From a virus, in the IMG/VR virus record IMGVR_UViG_3300036823_000156, positions 1 to 64,000 of that record: a stretch of 64,000 nt of DNA; one strand, written 5' to 3'. Below, one piece after another: positions 5,253 to 59,258 of the stretch. The notes below the pieces were generated by a model that searched no databases, had not been told where the DNA came from, and worked only from the letters and a program-made list of their open reading frames with translations. The first letter of the stretch is position 1; the number at the start of each line of letters is the position of its first letter. The translations under genes were made by a program, and so were the position numbers.

Positions 5253-7324
5253 AGCGAGCGGAACAGCGTCGTCACCACGTGGTCGACGGCCGCGTCGTGC
5301 GCGTCGTTGACCATGCCCGAACCCTGCTCCCAGTAGAAGTAGTTCTCCTCGTACGCGTAGTACTTCTCACGGAGCAAGTCCTCCACCGACTCGCCGGCAC
5401 CCAACGGACGCGGCATGAGCGCGCTCAGCGTGTCGTCGTCGGTGTCCTCCGCGTTCAGCGTCCGGCCGACCTCGTCACGGACCGCGCTGGACAGGTAGGC
5501 GTCCCATGCCCCTTCCGCGTAGTGGTTCTCCAGCTCGGACAAGTCCTCTTCGGACAGGACGGGGTAGTCCTGGAGGGACGTGGCCAGTTCGGTGGCGACG
5601 ACGAACGGGTACGTCAGCCGGGTGTGCTCCTCGTCTTCCCACACCCTGACCAACAGGTGGTCGACCGTGCCGACCAACCAGTGTCCCATGTTGGTATCAC
5701 GCACGTACTCGTCCGGCTCGACGTCCGCGAACACGCACGCCTCCCGGATGGCGGCCAGCGCGACACGGTAGTTGGACTCCTCCACGGGGTCGCTGGCCGC
5801 CGACTGGCCGAACGTCATTCCCCACGTGTCGAACAGGTCGACGTCGCCGAAGTAGCCGAAGTCTGACGGTCGGGTGGTCGCCTCGCTGGCCGCGCCGGTC
5901 AGTGTGTCGACGTCCAGGTCGGTCCGCTCGGTCGCGGGCAGAGCGCGCCACTGCGCCATCGTGATGAGCTCGTGACGGCGGAACGTCTCCCGGGCGTACT
6001 GGGAGAGCCGTAGCGAGCTACGCCCCCACAGTTCGACCGTGACCGTGCCACTCTCGCAGGCCACCACGCGGCCACCACGGCGGACGCCCTGGCGACCGGG
6101 ACGCGGGTCGTATTCGGTGACCGACGTGCCCAGCGGCAGCGTCACGCTGCCCTGATCGTGGGTGAAGATGTGGAACTTCAGACCGTCCACTTCGGACGAC
6201 AGGACACCGTTCCCGTGGAGCCCGGTCAGGATCTTGGTCAGCCGGTCGTGCGAGTACTCCGAGAGTCCGCGTGCGCTGATCATGGCGCGCTCACGGGCGA
6301 CCTCCGCCCGGATACCCTCTAGTGCGGCCTGATAGCCCGTGTACGGCCCGAAGTTGACCCAGGCCATGGCAGCGTCGTAGTCGGTGCGCGCGACCGTGCT
6401 GGACCGCCTGCCGTACCACACAGCGTCGTCCGGCGCGGCCAGCATCCGCTCATCGTGGAGCAGGTGCATCGCGATGTCGGCCGTCCGGGTCGCGTCCGCT
6501 TCGTGGGCGAGCGTCTCCGCGTCGGCCAGGATGCGTTCCGTGCTGAGAGCCTGTAGGGCGACCCACCCGGACGCGGTCACCTGGACCACGTAGCCGTTCT
6601 GAGCGACCGCTTCACGGGAGCGCAGCGCGGCGATCGTGGTGCGGATGGTGCCACCCTTGCGAGTGTCGAACCGGCCGTGCTCCGCGACGTAGGCGAGCGC
6701 GTCCAGCATGGTCGCGGAGTACTGCGACGCGACGGACAGCTGAGCCTGTCGGCGGCCGACAGCGGCCCGCACGGCGGGGTCTACGGCGGGCGCTGCCACG
6801 GTGGTGTTGTCCCGCGTGCCGGTCTCCCACTCCGCCACCATGGCGGCCAGTTCGGCCTTGCGGAGGCTGGACAGCGGAGCGATTTCCATCCCCCTGGTGA
6901 CCTCTACGACGTGCGCGTAGAGGTCGGCCCGCGTGCGGGACAGCGCCATGTCGTAGAGGTCGCTGTCGAACGTGTAGGAGCCGTGTCCGGTGACCGCCAT
7001 CGTGAGACGCTTCACCGGAGCCACGATGGTCACGGTCGGCACGGTGGAGTTGTACTCGTCAGCATCGGCTTCCGCGTTGGCCAGGATGTGCGGCAGGTCC
7101 GAGCTGTCGCCGTGCGCGGCCAGCGCCGACCAACCCTCTGCGGTCAGCCGGGCCAGCGTGCCGCTGGGGATGGTGCCGTTGACCGTCAGCTGACCCACGA
7201 TGGCGCCTCGCGTGACCAGTGCGGTCACGGTGCTGGCACCCATGGAGGCGCTGACACGGCCGCTACGGGCCACCCATGAGAGCGCGGTGATCATGTTGTG
7301 CGAGTAGGTGGTCTTGCTGCTCAT
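5249..7324 (-). CDS. large multidomain hypothetical protein with internal repeat
   Basis: 691 aa; two related segments MITALSWVARSGR..GWSALAA and MLDALAYVAEHGR..GWVALQA; acidic C-terminal domain. Confidence 0.7.
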   Translation of the reverse strand: MSSKTTYSHNMITALSWVARSGRVSASMGASTVTALVTRGAIVGQLTVNGTIPSGTLARLTAEGWSALAAHGDSSDLPHILANAEADADEYNSTVPTVTIVAPVKRLTMAVTGHGSYTFDSDLYDMALSRTRADLYAHVVEVTRGMEIAPLSSLRKAELAAMVAEWETGTRDNTTVAAPAVDPAVRAAVGRRQAQLSVASQYSATMLDALAYVAEHGRFDTRKGGTIRTTIAALRSREAVAQNGYVVQVTASGWVALQALSTERILADAETLAHEADATRTADIAMHLLHDERMLAAPDDAVWYGRRSSTVARTDYDAAMAWVNFGPYTGYQAALEGIRAEVARERAMISARGLSEYSHDRLTKILTGLHGNGVLSSEVDGLKFHIFTHDQGSVTLPLGTSVTEYDPRPGRQGVRRGGRVVACESGTVTVELWGRSSLRLSQYARETFRRHELITMAQWRALPATERTDLDVDTLTGAASEATTRPSDFGYFGDVDLFDTWGMTFGQSAASDPVEESNYRVALAAIREACVFADVEPDEYVRDTNMGHWLVGTVDHLLVRVWEDEEHTRLTYPFVVATELATSLQDYPVLSEEDLSELENHYAEGAWDAYLSSAVRDEVGRTLNAEDTDDDTLSALMPRPLGAGESVEDLLREKYYAYEENYFYWEQGSGMVNDAHDAAVDHVVTTLFRSL

Positions 7325-49053: not shown

Positions 49054-50813
49054 TAGATCAACTCCTTCGCTCTGCGCCCGTCGAGGGCGAACTTCTGGAC
49101 GGCATCCGCCGCGCGGTTGTCGTTGTGGATCTTGTGCTCGATCGTGCCGGTCGAGCCGAGGTACCAGATGGTGACCTGGTGCATGCGGGACACGCGGTGC
49201 GCGCGGTCCTCGACCTGCTCCTGGTCGTCGGGCACCCAGGTCTGGTCCAGGAAGATCACGTCGTCGGCCGCGTCCAGGGTCAGCGAGACGCCACCGGCCG
49301 TGGTGGTCAGCAGCATGACCTGCGGGGCGCCGTCCTCCTGGAACGAGCGCTTCGCCGTGGCCCGGCGGGCCTTGGACACGTCGCCGGTGATCTTGGTGAC
49401 CTGCACGCCCGCCTCGATCAGCGCGGTCTCGAACAGGTCGATGACCGAGCTGAACTGGCTGGCGACGATCACCTTCTGGTCGGCGTCGCGCTCGGAGAGC
49501 CAGTTGAGCAACCACTTCAGCTTGTTGGAGGGCGTTTCGGGAACGAAGTTGCCCTCGTCGTCCAGCCGACCGGCGGTGGTGGCGAACTGCTTGAGCCGGG
49601 TCAGCACGGCCAACACGCCGTCGGCCTGCAGCTCCCCGCCGTCCAGCTCGACCAGGGCGCGCTGGCGCATGTCCTTGTAGATGCGGGCCTGCTCGGGCTC
49701 CATGTCCAGCCAGATGGCGCCGTTGCCGGCGTAGAACTTCGGCGGCAGGTCGGGGGCCGCGTCCTTCTTCGTGCGGCGCAGCATCACCGAGTCCAGCTCG
49801 GCGTAGAACTCCGGCTTGCGGTGGATCTTCAGGCCGTCGATGATCCGGCCGCGGCCCGCCGCGTCGTCGTAGACCTCGAACCAGTGCTCGACCCACGTCC
49901 AGTACGAGCGGTATCGCTCGGGGTAGAGCCAGTTCAGCGTGCCCCACAGGTTCTCCAGCTTGCCGCGGAACGGCGTGCCCGACATCGCGATCCGCAGGCC
50001 ACCCTCGGCCACCTTCAGTCGACCCAGGCCCTGCCGACGGGCGGCCTGCTTGTAGATGGCACCGGTGCGGGTGATCAACATCTGGTGCGACTCGTCAGCG
50101 ATGATCGAGGCCCACTCGACGTCGTGCAGCTGGGTGTAGCCGTCCTTGAGACGGAACATCTCCGGGTTGCACACCAGCCACTTGCGGCCGGGCGCGGCCA
50201 GGAACGCGGCGATCGTCTTCTCGCGCCTGACCCGGCCGCCGCAGCAGGCGAACACCGCGTCGCCGGGGACCCACCGGTGCAGCTCGGGCTCCCAGGTGAG
50301 GTCGACCGCGGTGGCCGGGGCGATGACCAGGTTCGGCCCGTCGATCCCGCTCTCCAGTACGGCGCCGATCGACTGCAGCGTCTTGCCCAGGCCGGGCTGG
50401 TCGCCCAGCAGGCCGCAGCGCGAGGAGGCCAGCCAGGCCGCGCCGACCTGCTGGTAGGTGCGGGTGCTCATCGCCTCGGCGAGCACCGGGAAGAGGGTGC
50501 GCACGCGATCCACGTCGGCGCCCTCCTGCCCGGCGATCGCCGCGATCCGCTCGCGGCGCTGCTTCTCCTCGATCGCCCACGCGGTCAGCGCCGGGCCGAT
50601 CGAGAGCTGCGTGCCCCACACCCGACGCAGGTCGGTGCAGCTGTACCACGCCAGTGGGTAGGTCCAGGCCTTGTGCGTCTTGTTCCAGGAGTGGCCTTGC
50701 ACCGACTTGCACAGGCGCTTCATCTCCTCGAACGCCGCGTCGTCGCCGTAGGGGACGCGTGGCGTCCGGAGGTGGATCCGGCCGCTGACCAGTTCGATGG
50801 CGGGAAGCTGCAT
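49053..50813 (-). CDS. SNF2-family helicase
   Basis: DQPGLGKT, ADESH, MSGTP, MLRRTK, GGVSLTL, QVEDRAHR. Confidence 0.9.
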   Translation of the reverse strand: MQLPAIELVSGRIHLRTPRVPYGDDAAFEEMKRLCKSVQGHSWNKTHKAWTYPLAWYSCTDLRRVWGTQLSIGPALTAWAIEEKQRRERIAAIAGQEGADVDRVRTLFPVLAEAMSTRTYQQVGAAWLASSRCGLLGDQPGLGKTLQSIGAVLESGIDGPNLVIAPATAVDLTWEPELHRWVPGDAVFACCGGRVRREKTIAAFLAAPGRKWLVCNPEMFRLKDGYTQLHDVEWASIIADESHQMLITRTGAIYKQAARRQGLGRLKVAEGGLRIAMSGTPFRGKLENLWGTLNWLYPERYRSYWTWVEHWFEVYDDAAGRGRIIDGLKIHRKPEFYAELDSVMLRRTKKDAAPDLPPKFYAGNGAIWLDMEPEQARIYKDMRQRALVELDGGELQADGVLAVLTRLKQFATTAGRLDDEGNFVPETPSNKLKWLLNWLSERDADQKVIVASQFSSVIDLFETALIEAGVQVTKITGDVSKARRATAKRSFQEDGAPQVMLLTTTAGGVSLTLDAADDVIFLDQTWVPDDQEQVEDRAHRVSRMHQVTIWYLGSTGTIEHKIHNDNRAADAVQKFALDGRRAKELI

Positions 50814-50820
50814 GCCGGCC

Positions 50821-50832
50821 AATGTACACTAA
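50821..50832 (-). promoter_or_regulatory. TTAGTGTACATT repeated motif
   Basis: Directly upstream of the helicase start. Confidence 0.6.
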
Positions 50833-51080
50833 CCTTCCGCTACGGGTCCAGTCGGTTCCGGCCCGGCGTGCTCACCGAGGCTGAGATGGACGTGGGTGAG
50901 CAGCATCAGCTTCCGGGCGCCCTCCTGCACCTCCGCCAGCTCGTTGGCCGTGAGCTTCTTCAGCCCATGCGCCGCCATCGCGTTGCCCTCGGCGTTCTTG
51001 TCCATCAGACAAGTCAGGGCGGTCGCCGCCGACACCTGCGCGTCGGGCAGGGTCAGGATCTTGTGGGCGTAGGCGTCCAT
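50829..51080 (-). CDS. hypothetical protein
   Basis: GAGGAG RBS. Confidence 0.55.
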   Translation of the reverse strand: MDAYAHKILTLPDAQVSAATALTCLMDKNAEGNAMAAHGLKKLTANELAEVQEGARKLMLLTHVHLSLGEHAGPEPTGPVAEG

Positions 51081-51275
51081 TCCGCTCCTCTTCCAGTGAG
51101 ACGATCAACTGCCGGAGGGATCCGGCAATCGCTTCGAAGTCCAGCACGTACTCCGCATGCACGCGCTGGTCGCGCTTGCGGGCGATCCGCAAGATGTTCT
51201 CGCAGGTGTCCAGCGCCCGCCGGGCGAGCGTCAGATGCAGTGGGTACAAAGGTGTCCTTTCCAGACGGTTCAGAA

Positions 51276-51853
51276 CCGCACGGGCATTACTAAATGGCGT
51301 GCGCCAGCATGGTTGGCTCGTGCGGAGCGAGGTCCGCCCGGCCGGCGGGTCTACTTGGCGCACAGGAGGTCATGGCCAACCGGGCGGAGCGAGTTCCCAG
51401 CCTGCGTCCCGCTATGGGTACACGATAATCACTGGCAGACCGGGAGGTGGAGCCGCCCGGCTGGCGACCGATTTCTGGAGCGCGCTCCGTACTGGCCAGC
51501 CGGGCGGAGTAGGTGATCGAGCGGTCAATTTTGGTGTGTCGCGAAGTAATGGCTCGATCGGAAGGGGACCGCCCGGCTGGCGGGGTCGGGGTGGAGTGCG
51601 ATGTGAGCTGGCCAACCGGGCGGAGTGGTTCCGAGGCGGGACACATTTGGGGTGCGCCACGAAATGGCCTCGGTGTGTTGGGCCGCCCGGCTGGTGGCAT
51701 TAGTTGGAGTGCGACACTCTGATGACCAACCGGGCGGAGTAGATGACCGGGCATAACGATATGGAATGCGAATCGCGTTGGCCCGATCAGAAGGGACCGC
51801 CCGGCTGGCGGTTCAAGATGGGTTGTGTCGGATTTCTGGCCAGCCGGGCGGAG
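51276..51853 (-). ncRNA. stem-loop dual-spacer guide array (TIGR-like), 10 units downstream of the Nop-domain gene
   Basis: Each unit on the minus strand is stem-CCA-N8-10-(C/T)G-N4-5-CCA-N8-9-(C/T)G-stem; every second unit uses stem CCGCCCGGYTGG...CCAGCCGGGCGG. Confidence 0.85.
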
Positions 51854-51855
51854 TC

Positions 51856-52782
51856 TCAGGCCGCGTCCTGCAGGTCGGGCGGTCCGAAGCCGTGGGCGAC
51901 GTGGATGGCGCGGGACTGCCGCCACAGGTCGCGCAGGACCTCCTTGGACACGCACCGCAGGGCGCGAGCGTGGATGTGGTTCTTCGACAGCGGGGTGCCG
52001 GCGAGCGCGGGGCTGCCCGAGGGTCCGCATCGGACGCAGGCCAACTCGTGCACGGCGTCGGCGTAGAACTCCTTCTCCTGGTCGTAGACCTCGCGGTACG
52101 GGCCGCCGGACTTCATGCAGGACTCGGAAATCATCCGGCAGCGCATCCGCGCGGTGACCGACCAGTTGACCTTGGTGCCCTTGCGGCGGGCCGGAGCCAG
52201 ACCGGCGATCACGCTGTAGCCGGAGTAGCTCCACAGCTCGGCGATCGTGCGGGGGCGGCCCATCTTGACGTTCCAGTACGGATCCCCGATCGCGGCCAGC
52301 AGTCGACCGACCTGCTTGGCGCCCAGGCCCTTCTGCGCCTCGATCCAGCCGTACAGCGGGTGGTCCTGAATGGTCTTCTGCAGGTTCTTCGTCGCGTTGA
52401 CCTCGGCCCGCTGCATCGGCGGCACGATCAGGCCCATCTGCCACACCATCGGGTTCCAGCCCTTGGGCATGGTGAAGATCTTGCGGTTGGCCGCGGCCTG
52501 GATGGACAGGTGCGTCTCGACCTCGTCGAGCACGGCCTGCACGAGGTCGAAATCCTCCTCGTCCTCGGGCACGTGGATGTTCGGGGGCAGGAAGCCGAAG
52601 CCGACGTCCTTGCCGTCCTTGTTCATCCGGGGCAGCACGAGCTGGCGCAACCGGTTCTGGTTGGCGATGCGCACGCGCTCCATGTCGTCGAGCACGTCGG
52701 CGGCCATCGTCAACGTGGGCGGCGACATCAGTTCGGCGAGGGGATTCGGTACCGCTTCGACCTCTTCGATCTCTTCTGTCAT
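51856..52782 (-). CDS. Nop-domain / IS110 C-terminal-like RNA-binding protein without nuclease domain (TasA-like)
   Basis: RVRIANQNRL coiled coil, KGLGAKQVGRLLAAIGD, LWSYSG, RRKG...NWS, YREVYD..K, HARALR...K..L.DLW; no RuvC/DEDD N-terminus. Confidence 0.8.
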   Translation of the reverse strand: MTEEIEEVEAVPNPLAELMSPPTLTMAADVLDDMERVRIANQNRLRQLVLPRMNKDGKDVGFGFLPPNIHVPEDEEDFDLVQAVLDEVETHLSIQAAANRKIFTMPKGWNPMVWQMGLIVPPMQRAEVNATKNLQKTIQDHPLYGWIEAQKGLGAKQVGRLLAAIGDPYWNVKMGRPRTIAELWSYSGYSVIAGLAPARRKGTKVNWSVTARMRCRMISESCMKSGGPYREVYDQEKEFYADAVHELACVRCGPSGSPALAGTPLSKNHIHARALRCVSKEVLRDLWRQSRAIHVAHGFGPPDLQDAA

Positions 52783-52810
52783 GCACTTTCTCCTTGGGTG
52801 GGTGGGGATT

Positions 52811-53175
52811 CCGACTGACGGGGAGTGCTGGTCGCACGATCGCTGATGGTCAGTCGGAGCGGTGGTCCGCTCGGCCGGCGGGATGACTTGTGTCGTGCTT
52901 CCGTGTTGGCCGACCGAGCGGAACTCGGTCACCCGGCCGACGTCGTCAGCGTTGGTTCGCCGCGCGCTGTTGGTCGACCGGGCAAATCTCTTCGGGTGGA
53001 ACCGCCCGACTGGCGAAAGGTGTTTGGGCAGCGATCGCTCCTGGCCAGCCGGGCGGAGTCGGGCCCGTTGCCGACACGACGATTGTGAGTCGAGTCGTGC
53101 GGTGGTCGGCAACGGGAGTGGGCGTCCGGCCAACGTTCACCCGTGGGGCGCATGGGTCGAGCTGGTCGGCCGGAC
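52811..53175 (-). ncRNA. stem-loop dual-spacer guide array (TIGR-like), 6 units upstream of the Nop-domain gene
   Basis: Same CCA/CG unit grammar, e.g. CCGCCCGGCTGG-CCA-GGAGCGAT-CGCTGC-CCA-AACACCTTT-CG-CCAGTCGGGCGG. Confidence 0.82.
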
Positions 53176-53178
53176 TGA

Positions 53179-53190
53179 AATGTACACTAA
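53179..53190 (-). promoter_or_regulatory. TTAGTGTACATT motif immediately 5' of the stem-loop array
   Basis: CACCGACCTnnGTTAGTGTACATT is shared with the copy at 54904. Confidence 0.65.
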
Positions 53191-53215
53191 CACAGGTCGG
53201 TGTAGCGGTAATGAT

Positions 53216-53656
53216 CCAAGCCTCGCCTCGCCTGGCCGCGCCCTGCCCAGCCTCGCCCCGCCATGCACCGCCTTGCCTAGCACCGCATCGCCAAGCGCGT
53301 CCGGCAGCGGAGTCGAACCGCTGCTACGACCATCCGGACAACCATTCTCCCAGCCTTGCCATGCCGCGCCATGCCTCGCCGGGCACCGCCCAGCCTCGCC
53401 ACGCCGAGCGTGCTGCCCCCGGGAGTCGAACCCGAGATGCGACCATCGCAGCTACCATTCTCCTAGCCACGCCGCGCACCGCCGCGCCCTGCCGCGCCGA
53501 GCCACGCCATGCCAAGCCACGCCCTGCCGAGCGTGCTGCCCCCGGGAGTCGAACCCGAGGTACGACCATCGCAGCCACCATTCTCCTAGCCTGGCCCAGC
53601 CGCGCCCTGCCCTGCCGAGCCACGCCCTGCCCTGCCGAGCCACGCCACGCCCTGCA
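53216..53656 (-). ncRNA. array of four (GGC-NN)n pentamer tracts separated by three tRNA-like linkers
   Basis: Tracts of 14, 14, 12 and 16 pentamers; linkers GGAGAATGGT..GATGGTCG..GGTTCGACTCC with covarying stems. Confidence 0.85.
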
Positions 53657-53664
53657 TCTTCGCG

Positions 53665-54150
53665 CTAGGCGCGAAGTTTCTTGGGAGCGTTGCGCTCCAA
53701 TTCTGCCACTCGCTCGGCGAGTGACCGAGTTTCGCGGCGGCGGCGGCCGTTGATCTCGGCCTTGCGAGCTGCTACGCGTTCCTCGAAGTCCACCTCGGCC
53801 CGCCGTTCGTGTACCAGTTCGGCACGACGGCGTTGTGAGGCATTGATCTTGGCGGCGTGACGGTCGTCAGCGCGTGCAGCTTTCTTGCGTTGCCTGCCGA
53901 TCAGCGGCACGGCGGCGTTCGGCTCCAACACCAGCCACCCGATGTTCTCCTTGGTTTCGACCGTGTTCTTGCCGGCACGACCGAGTTCCAGATTGGCCTT
54001 GATCATCGCGCCTTGGACCGAGTTCCGGCTGGGCGCCTTGCAGTCCTCGATAGCCTGGGCATAGGTGATGACGCCACCCACCTCGGTCTCGCACACGATG
54101 TCGTACAGGATCCGCCAACGTGCCTTGCCGTTCGCAGGTTCGATGTTCAT
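53665..54150 (-). CDS. putative winged-HTH / coiled-coil DNA-binding accessory protein
   Basis: WRILYDIVCETEVGGVITYAQA (HTH-like), basic coiled-coil C-terminus; coupled to the RAMP-like gene. Confidence 0.55.
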   Translation of the reverse strand: MNIEPANGKARWRILYDIVCETEVGGVITYAQAIEDCKAPSRNSVQGAMIKANLELGRAGKNTVETKENIGWLVLEPNAAVPLIGRQRKKAARADDRHAAKINASQRRRAELVHERRAEVDFEERVAARKAEINGRRRRETRSLAERVAELERNAPKKLRA

Positions 54151-54722
54151 TGAGTCACCTCGACCGTGAACCTCCCGTAGAACCGGCGGAACGTGCCGAC
54201 ACCGATCATCTTGCCCGCCTTGGTCGCGATATCTTGGAAGTCCTCGGTCGACAGCACGCGGTCGTCGACGTCGATCTCGAACGCGCAGGACCACTGCGGG
54301 AAGATCGGCCGGACGCGCGGGATGCGCTTGCCCTCCACATTCACCATCAGGCGGCTGACGTACGGACTGGTCGGCCCGTCGCCCCAGAGACCGTCGACAT
54401 CGCGCGGCCCGTCATAGGACAGTGGCGCCTTCAGATCAAAAACCTGAAGAGCTTGAGCGACTTTCTTGCCCGACCGGGTGATGGACCCCGCCTCCATCAG
54501 CGCCCGGAAGATGTTGTCACCCGGCAGGTACGGACCGAGCTCGGCGTTGTGGTACAGCGCCCCGACCCAGGACAACCGGTCGATCTCGGCCCTGTCCTCG
54601 TCGGTCTTGTTGGTTCGTTTGGACGTCAGTTTCTTTACGGCCCTGGTGATCGGCTCATCGGGGTCGGCAAGTCTGATGTTGTGCATGATGAGCGGCGCGA
54701 TGCCGGTCAGCTCGATTCGCAT
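54147..54722 (-). CDS. Cas7/RAMP-like RNA-binding protein
   Basis: N-terminal strand MRIELTGIAPLIMH, 'YLPGDNIFRAL', 'RVRPIFPQWS..F', C-terminal Gly-rich loop AGKMIGVGTFRRFYGRF. Confidence 0.75.
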   Translation of the reverse strand: MRIELTGIAPLIMHNIRLADPDEPITRAVKKLTSKRTNKTDEDRAEIDRLSWVGALYHNAELGPYLPGDNIFRALMEAGSITRSGKKVAQALQVFDLKAPLSYDGPRDVDGLWGDGPTSPYVSRLMVNVEGKRIPRVRPIFPQWSCAFEIDVDDRVLSTEDFQDIATKAGKMIGVGTFRRFYGRFTVEVTQ

Positions 54723-54790
54723 GACTTTCCGTTCTGTGGTCAGTGTTTGACGGCAGTTCCGTCTCACTTCACATCGGACATTGTCCGATC

Positions 54791-54901
54791 GTGCGGGCCG
54801 AGGACTCGAACCTCGGTGTGTGCCGCTCCCGCTTCCTAGCCTGGCCCCGCCAAGCCCTGCCCTGCCGAGCCACGCCCTGCCATGCCGAGCCCTGCCTTGC
54901 A
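54791..54901 (-). ncRNA. leader (GGC-NN)13 tract plus tRNA-like element
   Basis: 13 pentamers, then GCGGG...CCGAGG-TTCGAGT-CCTCGG-CCCGC-AC. Confidence 0.82.
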
Positions 54902-54903
54902 AG

Positions 54904-54937
54904 AATGTACACTAACGTAGGTCGGTGATCGCGTCAA
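54904..54937 (-). promoter_or_regulatory. sigma70-type promoter TTGACG-N17-TAGTGT
   Basis: -35 at 54932-54937, -10 at 54909-54914; predicted start falls at the first pentamer. Confidence 0.7.
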
Positions 54938-55379
54938 GTCCGACGGAGCGGAAAGCACTGTCCGCAAAGGTCAGAACGCGGCGGCCCATGCGAGTGCTGT
55001 AGACGTGGGTGGAGCGGGCATCCTTGGGCACGGTGGCCTTCTCGCGCAGACCGGTGAACGTGTTGATCCACTCGATCTGCTTGCCGGCCAGGCATTCCGC
55101 TGCCGTGTTGTCGTCCATGGCCGCGAAGTCGTAGGTCGGCTCGCTGGTGCGCAGTGCGGTGGCCGCCGCGGCCGGGTCCAGGATCTGCTGGCGCCCCCGC
55201 ACTTCGGGCGACTCGAACCAGGACTCCGAACTGGCGAAGCGCTCGCCGCGCCAGATCAGCTCCATCCGCTCACCCTCGCCGCGCCAGAACCGCATCCGGT
55301 AGTCGCTCTCGTAGCCCAGCTCGTCGTGCTCCCAGCCCATCTTGGTGGCCCAGTGCGCCAACTCCTCGGTGCCTTTCAC
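54912..55379 (-). CDS. hypothetical protein
   Basis: GTG start with GAGAGG RBS. Confidence 0.6.
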   Translation of the reverse strand: MKGTEELAHWATKMGWEHDELGYESDYRMRFWRGEGERMELIWRGERFASSESWFESPEVRGRQQILDPAAAATALRTSEPTYDFAAMDDNTAAECLAGKQIEWINTFTGLREKATVPKDARSTHVYSTRMGRRVLTFADSAFRSVGLDAITDLR

Positions 55380-55696
55380 GCCGGATACCCTCTCTCCATC
55401 AGCTCGACCGGGCGCTCGCCGACGTAGCCCTGGCACGCGCACCGCACATCGACGTCGTGCCAGTCCACATTGGTGGCCCACTTGCGTTGTTGGTGCGTGA
55501 CCTGGCACGGCCCGCCGTGGAGCAGCTCACGCGTGCTGGTGACGAGGTGCTCGTGCGCACTGATGGGATCTCCGCACGTGCACCGGTAGCTCGGCGGCTT
55601 CGGGTCCTGGTGGTCCCGCTTGTAGTAACCGGTCACGCGGCCGACGACGAAGGCCACCACCGTCGCCGCCGCGAGAACGATGTCGAGCAGGTGCAT
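55376..55696 (-). CDS. membrane-anchored Cys/His protein
   Basis: TM segment, then CTCG..H...C...CAC..Y. Confidence 0.6.
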   Translation of the reverse strand: MHLLDIVLAAATVVAFVVGRVTGYYKRDHQDPKPPSYRCTCGDPISAHEHLVTSTRELLHGGPCQVTHQQRKWATNVDWHDVDVRCACQGYVGERPVELMERGYPA

Positions 55697-55698
55697 GG

Positions 55699-56589
55699 TC
55701 AGTTGCCGCCCACGACGACCGGCGACCCCTGCGGGATCGGGATGATCTTGACCTTGCCGTCGGTGATGGCCTGGTTGACGGCCTGCTGTTCCTGGTAGGC
55801 CTGGTAACCGGCCACGCCGCCCGGGAAGTTCTTGGCCGCCTGCTCGTCCACGGCGGCGGCCTGCTGCCGCAGCACCGCGGCCTGCTTGGCCGACAGACCG
55901 GCCTGCAGCTGGGGCTGGATGCCCGGCTTCTGCAGCAGCACCACGTCGATGTCGATCAGGTTGGTGCCCAGCGTGAGCTGGTTGAGGATGCGCGGGATGT
56001 CCTGCTGCACCTGCGTGGACCACGAGGTGGTGGCCTGCGCGGAGGTGTAGAGGTCCTGCCAGCCGAAGTTCAGCGCCTCGGTGTCACTGGCCCGGTCGAC
56101 GGCCGCGCCCAGGTAGTTCTTCAGCATCTCGTCCCAGCCGCCGGGCAGGTCCGCGTCCGCGTCGGTGGGCAGCGCGTCGTACTTCTTGCCGATCAGCTCC
56201 CAGAACGCCTGCAGGCGCCCGCCGGGCCAGGTGCGGCCGGTCGAGTCCTTCCACGGCACGCAGGAGGTGTTGAGGGTGAACTTGACCGTGCCGGTCACGC
56301 TGATCTGCTGGCCGTCCTTGGTGGCCGAGGTCAGCGCCGGGGAGTCCTCACCCTTGCCGGTGCCGAAGGACCAGTCGCGCTGGCCCAGCGGTGCGTAGTA
56401 CTCGGTGTCGTTGACGTCGCGAGCGCCGTGCGTCGAGGGACCGGTGCACTGGACGAACTTCACGCTGTCGAAGGGGCCGCCGCCGTACTGCAGGGCGACC
56501 TGGGAGGCCGTGGTGTTGACGATCGAGCAGGCCGCGACGGCGGCCAGCACGACGGGGGCGAGGACTGCTGCTCGCAGGTACCTTTTCAC
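55699..56589 (-). CDS. SPFH/band-7-like lipoprotein
   Basis: Lipobox VAAC, 'YGGGPF', 'TKDGQQISVTGTV.F.L', coiled-coil C-terminus. Confidence 0.7.
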   Translation of the reverse strand: MKRYLRAAVLAPVVLAAVAACSIVNTTASQVALQYGGGPFDSVKFVQCTGPSTHGARDVNDTEYYAPLGQRDWSFGTGKGEDSPALTSATKDGQQISVTGTVKFTLNTSCVPWKDSTGRTWPGGRLQAFWELIGKKYDALPTDADADLPGGWDEMLKNYLGAAVDRASDTEALNFGWQDLYTSAQATTSWSTQVQQDIPRILNQLTLGTNLIDIDVVLLQKPGIQPQLQAGLSAKQAAVLRQQAAAVDEQAAKNFPGGVAGYQAYQEQQAVNQAITDGKVKIIPIPQGSPVVVGGN

Positions 56590-56852
56590 AGCTGTCGTAT
56601 GTCCTTTCTGGACTTCTGGATGATCTCCTTGACCTTGCTGGCCAGGGGGTGATCGAGGTCGCTGTACTCGGCGGCGGCCATGTCGATCTCGTACAGGGCG
56701 TCCTGGCGCAGGTTGTTCTGCGCCTCGACGCGCCGCAGGTGCCGCCGGTTGATCCCGGCCCGCCGCCCGAGCAGGAAGTAGGCCGCCCACATCAGCACCG
56801 CCAGCACGGCGACCGCACCGACACTGAGCCCGGCCAGATCCGCGAGCTTCAT
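56586..56852 (-). CDS. membrane protein
   Basis: N-terminal TM helix. Confidence 0.6.
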   Translation of the reverse strand: MKLADLAGLSVGAVAVLAVLMWAAYFLLGRRAGINRRHLRRVEAQNNLRQDALYEIDMAAAEYSDLDHPLASKVKEIIQKSRKDIRQL

Positions 56853-57280
56853 TCCTCGTCCTCCGGCTGTGCCGCTGGGGCAGCACCCACAACCTCGTGC
56901 GACATGATGCGGATGCGGTGGCGGCTCGGCCCGGCAGCCTCAACGGCGTCTTGCTCCGTCGCGTAGACGGCGTACACTTCATCGTCCATTTCGCTGCTAC
57001 CAGCGAGCCAGACGACCGCCGGGGCAGCGAGCAGACCGGCGGCGGCCAGAGTGCGGGCGACTTCCTCGGCGTATTGGTGCGCGGCAGTGCGTGGCCCGTC
57101 GTAGGCGCCACCCCACATGGCGCGGAACACCGCTCGCGCTGCTCTTTCGGTGAGGTCGGTGGCGAGGTGTAACTCGGATCGGGTGAACAGCTCCTCGGCG
57201 TCGGCCGGCACGGTGTCGCGGGTGCCACCCCGGATGAGGTCCTGCGACGGGGACCACCAGAGGCGGATGCGGGTGGCCAT
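56849..57280 (-). CDS. hypothetical protein
   Basis: Coupled ORF. Confidence 0.55.
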   Translation of the reverse strand: MATRIRLWWSPSQDLIRGGTRDTVPADAEELFTRSELHLATDLTERAARAVFRAMWGGAYDGPRTAAHQYAEEVARTLAAAGLLAAPAVVWLAGSSEMDDEVYAVYATEQDAVEAAGPSRHRIRIMSHEVVGAAPAAQPEDEE

Positions 57281-57483
57281 CAGAGGTTCACCGGCGCGTG
57301 CAGGTCCCCGCTGATCTGGGTGACGGTGCCGTGCACGCCGCCGACGACCTGGTTGCCGATGTTCAGCAGCCCGGCCCGGTGCAGGTGTTCGGCCAGCTGT
57401 CGGCACTCGCGCTTGTTCAGCGGCTGCGACCACTCGTCGCTGGCCACCTCGATGTGCTGGGCCGCGATCTCCACGATGCCCAT
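57280..57483 (-). CDS. hypothetical protein
   Basis: Coupled ORF. Confidence 0.5.
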   Translation of the reverse strand: MGIVEIAAQHIEVASDEWSQPLNKRECRQLAEHLHRAGLLNIGNQVVGGVHGTVTQISGDLHAPVNL

Positions 57484-57896
57484 CAGTCGTCCTCGCTCTC
57501 TTCCTCGTCCGGGAACTCGTTGTCCAGAATGAACTCGATCAGATCCGCGTCCCGGGTGCCGGTCGTGACGTAGAGGGTGGGGTCCAGCTGTCGGGCGACG
57601 GCCTCCAGATCGGTCCGCTTCATGGTGGTGAGTTCGCCCTCCCGGGCGTTCTCGGCGTCCGCGGTCAGCAGCTCGACGTCGGGTTCGTGGCCGCCCTCGG
57701 TCATGACCTCCAGCTCGCCGGTGTACGCGACCGCGCCGCAGCTCCCGCAGGTCAGCCGCTCCTGGGCGCCCATGTCGATCGGGATGGCGACGAGACCCTT
57801 GTGTTGGAACAGGGTCAGGCACGGACCGAAGAACACGTCCTCGCCGCAGTTCTCGCACTCCAGGAACAGATAGAAGCGCCCGTCGTTCTCGTCCAT
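57483..57896 (-). CDS. Zn-ribbon protein
   Basis: CENC...CGSC; acidic. Confidence 0.6.
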   Translation of the reverse strand: MDENDGRFYLFLECENCGEDVFFGPCLTLFQHKGLVAIPIDMGAQERLTCGSCGAVAYTGELEVMTEGGHEPDVELLTADAENAREGELTTMKRTDLEAVARQLDPTLYVTTGTRDADLIEFILDNEFPDEEESEDD

Positions 57897-58246
57897 CAGC
57901 CCAACACCTCCACGTCGGCTCGGTCCAGATCGTGCATCGTCTCGGTGGTGCAGTCCTCGGGATCGGCCGGGTAGGCGAACGACACGGTGCCGGCCCCTCG
58001 GTCGACCGCGGTGATCAGGTAGACGTGTCCGGCGAGCGGGAACCGGATGCGCTTACCGACCTGGTACTTGCCGGCGGGCTCGGCCACCGGGGCCGGTGTG
58101 GCTTCACCCAGTGCCAGGGTGAGCACGCGGGTGGACTCCAGGCCGTCCTTGGCCCGGATGTTGATCGGCTTGAGCAGTTGCTTGTCCTCGCAGGTGAGGT
58201 GGACCTCGCCCTTGGCGTTGCACCAGACCTCGAACATCAGCTTCAT
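57896..58246 (-). CDS. hypothetical protein
   Basis: Coupled ORF. Confidence 0.55.
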   Translation of the reverse strand: MKLMFEVWCNAKGEVHLTCEDKQLLKPINIRAKDGLESTRVLTLALGEATPAPVAEPAGKYQVGKRIRFPLAGHVYLITAVDRGAGTVSFAYPADPEDCTTETMHDLDRADVEVLG

Positions 58247-58482
58247 GACGCGCTCCCCTCGGCCACCGGGGCCGTCGAGACCCACTGGCTGGCGCGGGCG
58301 TCCCATTCCAGCTGCTTGGCCTCGGCGAAGCTGGCGTAGCTGCCCCGGCAGGTCACGGTGGCGATCATGCTGCCGCGGAACGCGCGTTTGGCCTGGTGCT
58401 TGGCCAGCGTGCCGTTGGCCAGCAGGCGAATCGGTTGCACGCAGGCCAGGCACGTGCCGTAGTACGGTTGTGCGGTTGTCAT
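58243..58482 (-). CDS. small Zn-binding hypothetical protein
   Basis: GTCLAC...H...CRGS. Confidence 0.55.
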   Translation of the reverse strand: MTTAQPYYGTCLACVQPIRLLANGTLAKHQAKRAFRGSMIATVTCRGSYASFAEAKQLEWDARASQWVSTAPVAEGSAS

Positions 58483-59258
58483 TCGGCTCCTTCCCAGGTT
58501 GCCTCGTAGATGGTGGCCATCAGGCCGTTGGCCCAGTCGCGGTCGGGCACCGTCCGCAACGGCGACTTCTCGATCGCTTCCTGGATGTCCAGCTCCCAGT
58601 CCTCGATCATCGACAGCACCTCGTCCAGCGTGTAGACGCCGGTGCGGATGTGGTGCAGCAGGGTGCGCTGGGGCTCGGGGATCGGCAGCGTGATGCGGCC
58701 GGTGGACAGCAGCTCGTGTCCCTGGAAACCCAGGCGCACCGCGTGGTAGGCGAACTTCGTGTCGAAGCCGTACTCGGCGATCAGCTCGGGACGGTTGGTG
58801 TGCTGCGACTTCAGGCCCAGCATGCGCAGGCGCTGGTTGTGCAGGTAACCCAGGAACTTGTGCGTGATCTGCTTGGACAGGATGTGTTCGATCGCGTGGT
58901 TCGAGCGCAGCACCCGACCCCAGTGCGTGATGGTCACGGTGTCCTGCTTCGGCGCGAACAGCGGCATGATGACGGTGGGGTTGCCGTCCAGCGCCAGGCG
59001 CATCCACTTGCGCAGCCCGTAGACGTTCAGATCGAGATCGCCCGGTCCGGAACGCACGTGCTGCGGCTGGGTGCGGAACTCGTACTGGTCGAAGCGCTTC
59101 AGCCCGAGCACGTACTCCTTGGGTTCGACGCAGATGCCCATCTCGTCGCGGTCGTCGGTGTCCTCGACGGTCACCCCGTACAGGCCGGAACCGACCTGGG
59201 TCCGCAGGATCGTGAACCGGTTGGCGATGTCCTCGCGGTCCGGCGTCTGGTACTTCAT
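58479..59258 (-). CDS. DNA pol beta-superfamily nucleotidyltransferase (RlaP/YcgL-like)
   Basis: VGSGLYG...DDRDEMGI, GNPT, GFDTKFAYHAVRL, IRTG. Confidence 0.8.
   Translation of the reverse strand: MKYQTPDREDIANRFTILRTQVGSGLYGVTVEDTDDRDEMGICVEPKEYVLGLKRFDQYEFRTQPQHVRSGPGDLDLNVYGLRKWMRLALDGNPTVIMPLFAPKQDTVTITHWGRVLRSNHAIEHILSKQITHKFLGYLHNQRLRMLGLKSQHTNRPELIAEYGFDTKFAYHAVRLGFQGHELLSTGRITLPIPEPQRTLLHHIRTGVYTLDEVLSMIEDWELDIQEAIEKSPLRTVPDRDWANGLMATIYEATWEGAE

Follow-up and report, generated by a model that had tools for sequence, protein, structure and literature searches.

Evidence for a type II-like VIPR cassette with tRNA-like guide tails in a soil actinophage genome

Layout and proteins of the cassette

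We analysed a 64,000-nucleotide (nt) stretch of viral DNA, positions 1 to 64,000 of IMG/VR virus record IMGVR_UViG_3300036823_000156 (the whole stretch is hereafter the window; the source genome, an IMG/VR virus record, has 83,959 bases), in which the minus strand of 53216-54927 carries five tracts of tandem CNNGG units. The tracts contain 12-16 units each and enclose two genes, P0001 and P0002; a tRNA-like minihelix comes after four of the tracts. In minus-strand order, from 54927 to 53180, the region consists of a 23-nt motif, the first tract (vr1) and its tRNA-like element, P0001, P0002, three further tracts (vr2, vr3, and vr4) that are each followed by a tRNA-like element, a fifth tract (vr5), and a second copy of the 23-nt motif (Table 1). 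We conclude that this region is very probably a type II-like VIPR (Viral Interference Programmable Repeat) cassette of a soil actinophage that is transcribed from the minus strand and in which the guides work as they do in its homologues. As described in the preprint that reports these systems, VIPR consists of a lone ancestral RAMP protein (Vipr), an accessory gene (vap), and guide RNAs (vrRNAs) composed of YNNGG units and a constant structured tail, and it is found mostly in phages (10.64898/2026.04.26.720920). The same minimal locus is found here, that is, a vipr gene and a vap-like gene flanked by non-coding guide regions in a virus record.

The five tracts contain 69 units; position 1 is C and position 5 is G in every unit (69/69 for both), position 4 is G in 64/69, and 64/69 units match CNNGG exactly. 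The entropy of the two NN positions is near maximal (1.80 and 1.98 bits over all 69 units), and Tandem Repeats Finder returns rows of period 5 and multiples of 5 over the tracts. The range given in the preprint for vrRNAs is 9-16 YNNGG units (10.64898/2026.04.26.720920); all five tracts, with 12-16 tandem units, a conserved GGY, and hypervariable NN, fit this description.

On the minus strand, the NN string of vr1 (54899-54835) is AA AG TC AT AG GT TC AG AG TT GG CA TA, that of vr2 (53654-53585) is AG GT GT TC AG AG GT TC AG AG GC TG CA TA, and that of vr4 (53408-53349) is TC GT GA TG GG CC GA AT GC AT AA TG. A first-pass annotation, made from the sequence alone, had listed the plus-strand dinucleotides of these three tracts; its lists are exact, that is, they are the reverse complements of the three NN strings, and the codon translations that it offered follow arithmetically from the lists, as one of two possible strand readings. 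The identity that it saw between vr1 and vr2 (8/13 units) is also borne out when the two tracts are aligned from the tail end; the fraction of unit-order shuffles of vr1 that reach 8 is 1e-05 (100,000 shuffles). Because about 1 in 100,000 such shuffles reaches eight matches, vr1 and vr2 are related and not alike by chance; since they are paralogous, the proposal that they are variants against homologous targets is plausible.

P0001 is the putative Vipr. It matches phrog_4652 (function unknown; E 1.1e-42), and a Pfam search found no family for P0001, for P0002, or for either neighbouring open reading frame (ORF). An AlphaFold model of P0001 (predicted local distance difference test score, pLDDT, 95.1) was compared with known structures using Foldseek; among PDB entries, Csm3/Cas7 subunits from type III and type VII CRISPR complexes match best (top E 5e-5, template modelling score about 0.5), and 56 matches reach E<=0.001, so the predicted structure has a Cas7/Csm3-type RAMP fold. 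P0001 also aligns over its full length (190 residues) with the protein encoded at the matching place in Escherichia phage SUSP1 (29% identity, E 3e-29). In the SUSP1 genome that we fetched, the gene for this homologue sits among GGTNN tracts, one upstream and three downstream; from these flanking tracts and the published locus description, we infer that it is the SUSP1 vipr gene. Mutation of K33 in SUSP1 Vipr is reported to abolish repression (10.64898/2026.04.26.720927); K33 aligns with K30 of P0001, and the lysine that touches the backbone beside the skipped base is kept in P0001. A Vipr protein is a minimal RAMP with an RRM core, a G-loop, and a thumb; P0001 is, thus, a RAMP protein homologous to a characterised Vipr and is predicted to polymerise on vrRNA.

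P0002, which overlaps P0001 by one base, matches no PHROG or Pfam family, and its relatives are located after vipr in 20 other loci. Its predicted structure (pLDDT 81.4) has the order helix-strand-helix-helix-hairpin followed by a helix of ~80 residues, with a winged-helix topology in the first part; Foldseek returned weak matches only (E 0.016-0.2, none <=0.001), nearly all of which are winged-helix DNA-binding domains. The vap proteins of VIPR types II, VI, and VII are reported to bind DNA; the predicted features of P0002 fit such proteins, although this agreement is not proof.

Table 1. Positions of the cassette features in the window, in minus-strand order.
Feature	Position	Strand	Description	Basis
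23-nt direct repeat, copy 2	54905..54927		ATGTACACTAACGTAGGTCGGTG on the plus strand; just upstream of vr1 on the minus strand; one cassette edge	
vrRNA 1 (vr1) guide tract	54835..54899	-	13 CNNGG units; the 'leader tract' of the first-pass annotation	unit parsing
vr1 tRNA-like tail	54783..54834	-	5-bp acceptor-like stem, GG-bearing loop, T-arm with TTCGAGT loop	covariance model, 55.9 bits, E 2.8e-11
P0001 (vipr)	54147..54722	-	191 aa + stop (191 codons, 54722-54150); RAMP/Cas7-like	PHROG, fold model, SUSP1 alignment
P0002 (vap-like accessory gene)	53665..54150	-	161 aa + stop (161 codons, 54150-53668)	predicted winged helix, then long helix
vrRNA 2 (vr2) guide tract	53585..53654	-	14 units; vr1 paralogue; internal 20-nt repeat	unit parsing, Tandem Repeats Finder
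vr2 tRNA-like tail	53532..53584	-		covariance model, 50.4 bits
vrRNA 3 (vr3) guide tract	53462..53531	-	14 units, one degenerate (CGGTG)	unit parsing
vr3 tRNA-like tail	53409..53461	-		covariance model, 50.7 bits
vrRNA 4 (vr4) guide tract	53349..53408	-	12 units; tract 53351-53410 of the first-pass annotation	unit parsing
vr4 tRNA-like tail	53296..53348	-		covariance model, 48.6 bits
vrRNA 5 (vr5) tract	53216..53295	-	16 units, 3 degenerate; no tRNA-like tail	unit parsing, covariance model
23-nt direct repeat, copy 1	53180..53202		other cassette edge	repeat search

The two copies of the 23-nt motif bracket the whole cassette; they are identical at 21/23 positions, and the motif has two matches in the window versus none expected (100 shuffles). 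A 36.9-kb contig (depth 20.5) from a second soil metagenome connects 53178 with 54904 and omits 1725 bp, the exact spacing of the two copies, at a joint whose short side spans 29 letters only; contigs with the cassette occur in the same sample at a depth of about 4-5. This suggests gain or loss of the entire cassette between the 23-nt direct repeats. Copy 2 of the repeat may also be a promoter or an operator; a search for promoters of the sigma-70 type found none. Because it has no tRNA-like tail, vr5 may be a terminal or decaying guide.

Directly downstream of the cassette, an ORF on the minus strand (51856-53133) matches phrog_4285, labelled transposase (E 9e-78, residues 122-411), and no Pfam family. 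The hairpin just past vr5 (53118-53180, plus strand) gives a weak Rfam match to RT-13 RNA (24 bits against a gathering score of 69.1; E 0.38) that is probably due to chance or to the terminal hairpin of the array read on the wrong strand.

Relatives of P0001 and the tRNA-like elements

Among 163 candidate proteins, 83 are relatives of P0001, and none of them has a Pfam domain. In 62/72 viral loci that encode a relative, at least one tract of at least seven NNNGG units is found on the strand of the gene; over all 72 loci, 248 tracts are on the gene strand versus 3 on the opposite strand. Loci in the cellular genomes of many phyla follow the same pattern (tracts in 32/36, none on the opposite strand). 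In the distant relatives, the sequences that separate the tracts are unrelated; the conserved partner of the protein is, therefore, the repeat tract and not the separator.

A tblastn search with P0001 identified 130 phage records, mostly SUSP1-like or Felixounavirus-like coliphages; the matches also include the Gordonia phages Trine and MakoManhole, Mycobacterium phage LittleE, and a Mycobacterium abscessus prophage. In cultured phages, Vipr homologues are labelled hypothetical protein (e.g., LittleE gene 34, prophiBWHA-1 gene 43, and MakoManhole gene 78); the same label is used in Pseudomonas phages LESphi2 and Medea1 and in about a hundred Felixounavirus-like coliphages and Salmonella phages. 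In Trine (MH271318.1), the annotated coding sequence of gene 40 (gp40; L001 2452-3255), downstream of the Vipr homologue gp41, crosses two guide tracts and three tRNA-like elements; its annotated start is probably too far upstream.

In the element that follows four of the tracts, the two strands of an outer stem (5-6 bp) enclose a loop of 9-12 nt, in which a GG is nearly invariant, and an inner stem of 5-7 bp that is capped by a TTCGANY loop; after the second strand of the outer stem come a purine and CG. The element corresponds to the half of a tRNA that consists of the acceptor and the T-arm, together with a GG like that of a D-loop. ARAGORN identified no tRNA genes in the window, and among the Rfam matches at E<=10 in 50000-58000 there is neither a tRNA nor a tmRNA; the tails are, therefore, not tRNA genes as tRNA finders see them, that is, cloverleafs with an anticodon arm. 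A covariance model of the element has exactly four strong matches in the 64-kb window, all inside the cassette. In 100 other sources the model has 72 matches, 67 of which are on the vipr strand in 23/99 VIPR loci searched (loci L107-L115 were left out of this search).

The pairing in the elements covaries. When 36 tails (20 loci and the window) were analysed with RNAalifold, compensatory changes were found in 9/10 pairs. In the model-fitted alignment, 95.1% of the cells are paired versus 68.0% in shuffles, with 163 versus 39.5 double changes (figures that lean towards structure, the alignment having been fitted to the model); sliding the partner columns lowers pairing to 33-57%. Thus, a conserved structured 3' tail, as described for vrRNAs, is found after 4/5 tracts.

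We give almost no credence to the explanation that the repeats function at the DNA level, as iterons or as elements of recombination or curvature, or that they are translated, which is what the annotation of Trine gp40 in GenBank implies. The annotated gp40 coding sequence does cross the array, and the tracts are spanned by long ORFs in the window, which is high in GC; however, the tracts have a strict strand bias (248 versus 3), a 5-nt period cannot hold a reading frame, and the compensatory pairing in the tails (95.1% of cells versus 68.0%) is of the RNA type.

The remaining five matches to the covariance model are located in five intergenic gaps of an early operon of Streptomyces phage phiScoe10, without guide tracts; because this operon has five of the elements and no tracts, the tRNA-like element is not specific to VIPR. 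The phiScoe10 minihelices (OQ672742.1; L002 2493-2553, 3189-3250, 3876-3937, 4411-4471, and 4906-4966) lie in an operon that includes an Ocr-like antirestriction gene, and they may be general RNA-processing punctuation in actinophages. Their occurrence fits a general processing signal that was borrowed by VIPR arrays. The element in the cassette would be either a retained 3' guide cap or a cleavage signal of the RNase P/RNase Z type. Tentatively, we propose that the minihelices form a class of their own among the 3' elements of vrRNAs and that this class is widespread; in it, an acceptor-like stem would be stacked on the T-arm, the GG loop could mimic the D-loop/T-loop elbow, and host RNase P/RNase Z would cut the guide array apart. 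The texts of the VIPR preprints and one supplement, as distinct from their figures, do not mention tRNA, and a literature search identified no paper that links vrRNAs with tRNA-like elements.

Reading of the variable dinucleotides and search for targets

According to the VIPR preprint, the NN letters pair with double-stranded DNA with one base skipped per unit, mostly at the codon wobble position, and the targets are competing phages, satellites, and prophages (10.64898/2026.04.26.720920). The evidence described there for this '1 nt skip rule' includes a pangenome search with 0-3 skipped bases, in vitro binding, and repression of green fluorescent protein (10.64898/2026.04.26.720920). The first-pass annotation had independently read NN as the specificity letters and the target as NNx, with the skipped base at the wobble position. 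This reading is right in kind and is the same as the published rule; the locus is homologous to those from which the rule was derived, and a test within the family agrees with it. The core idea is, thus, correct but was published already in 2026.

For the test, a gapped-pattern search was run family-wide: 305 guides from the fetched loci were converted into 1435 distinct ten-unit windows and compared with both strands of 1.65 Mb of related DNA in which guide tracts were masked. The numbers of matches at >=19/20 were 0 with skip 0, 3 with skip 1, 0 with skip 2, and 2 with skip 3; shuffled guides gave 0 with skip 1. The two skip-3 matches are homologous guide tracts that were left unmasked, and the third skip-1 match (19/20, G+C-rich) is probably due to chance. 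The other two skip-1 matches are perfect and represent a single site of an Amycolatopsis antarctica prophage of which the scanned DNA holds two copies (L008 12192-12220, identical to L080 16089-16117); the guide (L017 10699-10748) is encoded by a 147.9-kb viral contig with 31 tracts. The ORF around the site has 514 codons and C5-methyltransferase motifs; the first base of the site is at codon position 1, the site spells ILWASPECTN, and all of the skipped bases are at position 3. A perfect natural match was, thus, found under a 1-nt skip alone, with the gap where the first-pass annotation had expected it. From the shuffled 18/20 rate, we estimate that a perfect hit would arise here by chance with a probability of roughly 0.01 or less.

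Two further observations were made in these loci. The targeted A. antarctica prophage itself bears a VIPR locus. In a Methylobacterium locus (L104), a guide at 10558 matches 18/20 bases with a 1-nt skip at 5440-5468, in wobble phase, within a 923-codon ORF of its own locus; this match could be due to chance or could represent self-regulation.

The A. antarctica site also bears on a very improbable alternative, namely that the tracts are protein-wrapping or sponge RNAs in which a GGC every 5 nt binds around an oligomeric RNA-binding protein and NN are mere spacers. The model for this is TRAP (trp RNA-binding attenuation protein), around which (G/U)AG repeats wrap with spacers that carry no information, and the spacing in the tracts (a triplet plus 2 nt) does resemble that of TRAP sites. 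However, the partner protein here is a RAMP of the Cas7 type with a homologue that has been characterised by experiment as binding guides, NN is near maximal in entropy between invariant flanks, and the guide of a related locus exactly spells a conserved gene motif. A TRAP-like or sponge RNA was our initial idea; it was dropped after the RAMP fold and the homology with SUSP1 were found.

In this phage's own genome (83,959 bases), the guides match no better than shuffles at skips of 0-2 (100 shuffles each), with best skip-1 scores of 16-19 of 24-32 bases; perfect skip-3 scores there are the guides themselves. Thus, the guides have no self-target, as in other VIPR loci. When vr1 was searched with <=3 mismatches, it matched in 0/5 genomes that carry family members and in 0/201 sampled genomes of the order of A. 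antarctica (these are samples and not proof of absence).

Transcription, RNA ends, and the binding of Vipr to these tracts are predicted from what is reported for the homologues. Several results weigh against the assignment of the region as a VIPR cassette with working guides. The tails are tRNA-like and not pseudoknots of the SUSP1 type, and vr5 has none; the likeness between P0002 and the product of the gene downstream of vipr in SUSP1 is weak (E 3e-4, pairwise). The support for a 1-nt skip within the family is a single independent site, and no convergence on the A. antarctica prophage is seen for the other 30 guides of the phage (L017) that encodes the matching guide. Public collections were scanned with exact 1-nt-skip patterns of 10-11 units from unshuffled guides only: the viral collection contains 0 matches for vr1 units 1-11, 0 for vr2 units 3-12, 0 for vr4 units 1-10, 0 for vr5 units 5-14, and 0 for merged vr1/vr2 units 3-13.

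Units 1-10 of vr3 did produce matches, which we also count on the negative side. Two are in the viral collection, in related small contigs, where the pattern lies in wobble phase in a tape-measure-like ORF and spells ALADTIKTLE; the same pattern occurs at 15 places in metagenomes. The matches were rejected as targets. The 17 places belong to seven families that are unrelated in both DNA and protein (among them two ORFs that we read by eye as QueD-like and ferritin-like) and that share just ALA[DE]T[IM][KN]TL[DE]; units 11-14 match 3/8 bases at the viral sites; no other guide scores above shuffles on the two whole viral contigs; and the phage itself has no homologue of the tape-measure-like ORF. 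The matches are in frame because the pattern spells a common 10-residue peptide, and the exact match is one of chance at the peptide level in collections of this size. The resemblance to a P-loop strand that the first-pass annotation saw in tract 53351-53410 found no support. The scans identified no credible target for the five guides.

The missing targets raise the question of whether the cassette is a VIPR relative in which the rule of the clade differs, that is, a different number of skipped bases, partial use of the tracts, or RNA targets, in which case the NNx codon reading would not apply. We consider this unlikely, with a small residual chance. Scans with a 1-nt skip gave no target for any of the five guides, the tails are unlike those of the studied type, and alternative repeat forms (NNNGG, YNNNG, and NNNNG) are reported for some VIPR types (10.64898/2026.04.26.720920); however, the repeat unit here is canonical (64/69 CNNGG), P0001 is a full-length homologue of SUSP1 Vipr that keeps the backbone-contact lysine beside the skipped base, and the sole perfect natural match in the family has a 1-nt skip in wobble phase. 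Missing targets are also expected if the competitors of an uncultured soil phage are absent from the collections.

We, therefore, return to type II-like VIPR with the published rule as the preferred reading. In the homologues, a helical Vipr filament on the vrRNA is reported to sequester GGY and present NN, with one target base extruded per unit (10.64898/2026.04.26.720920, 10.64898/2026.04.26.720927); the reported outcome is an R-loop triplex and transcriptional silencing, and in SUSP1 vap1 enhanced protection (10.64898/2026.04.26.720920, 10.64898/2026.04.26.720927). The vrRNAs are described as being expressed as RNAs of about 100 nt that co-purify with Vipr. By analogy, Vipr protomers would polymerise along each vrRNA of the cassette, bury the conserved GGC in every unit of 5 nt, and leave the two variable bases exposed; these dinucleotides would pair with double-stranded DNA with one base skipped between successive ones, that is, five RNA bases per three DNA bases, and the resulting R-loop triplex would silence competing phages, satellites, or prophages at the level of transcription. 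With the skipped base usually at codon position 3, synonymous changes in the target would be tolerated. The five guides (vr1-vr5, 12-16 units) are expected to act likewise against competitors; vr1 and vr2 would be duplicated and diverged guides, and the tRNA-like minihelices after four of the guides would be structured 3' tails and/or processing signals.

Comparison with known systems

The central VIPR rule was legible from raw DNA and could be deduced by a reader of the letters; nothing new is added to the rule. The locus adds an example of VIPR from an uncultured actinophage, and the Vipr family extends to cultured actinophages. The locus also shows a class of tRNA-like guide tails through which the maturation of the guides may be coupled to the tRNA processing of the host. 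Targets, if found, would reveal which soil phages compete.

With the backbones of Class 1 CRISPR complexes (the Cas7 of Cascade, Csm3/Cmr4 of type III, and type VII), the cassette shares the RAMP fold and, as predicted from its homologues, protomers that polymerise on a guide RNA and a thumb that periodically displaces bases; it differs in its period, which is 5 nt with three displaced guide bases here versus 6 nt with one. Within 50000-58500, we found neither a CRISPR array nor further cas genes or genes for spacer acquisition; P0001 is the sole RAMP gene, and the neighbouring ORFs match other PHROG families. Tandem Repeats Finder likewise detected no array of the CRISPR type, that is, identical repeats with unique spacers, over 50000-58000, and the locus is not CRISPR-Cas. 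With TRAP-RNA complexes, the cassette shares triplets with 2-nt spacers; however, the fold of TRAP is unrelated and its spacers are uninformative.

Precedents for tRNA punctuation include that of mitochondrial transcripts, the mascRNA of MALAT1, and engineered polycistronic arrays of tRNAs and guide RNAs. The cassette resembles these in having structured elements between guides that could define RNA ends, with an acceptor stem and T-arm, a TTCGANY T-loop, and a GG loop; it differs in that the elements have no anticodon or D arm and in that cleavage by RNase P/RNase Z is hypothetical here. If the elements are indeed processed, the cassette would be a natural counterpart of the engineered tRNA-guide arrays. 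VIPR arrays interspersed with hammerheads are reported to exist (10.64898/2026.04.26.720920).

The closest known system is type II VIPR, described for Escherichia phage SUSP1 and a Pseudomonas fulva prophage (10.64898/2026.04.26.720920, 10.64898/2026.04.26.720927, 10.64898/2026.10.15.759431). Both have a lone homologous RAMP, a small accessory gene immediately after it (whose product is of the DNA-binding type there and may be so here), a single guide ahead of the genes and an array behind them, 12-16 YNNGG units, a constant 3' element, a viral genome, and no self-target. The locus described here, known from sequence alone, differs in belonging to a high-GC actinophage whereas the others belong to Escherichia and Pseudomonas phages, in having GGC units where the others have mostly GGT, and in having five guides; its 3' element is a tRNA-like acceptor/T-arm minihelix, in contrast to the pseudoknot of SUSP1.

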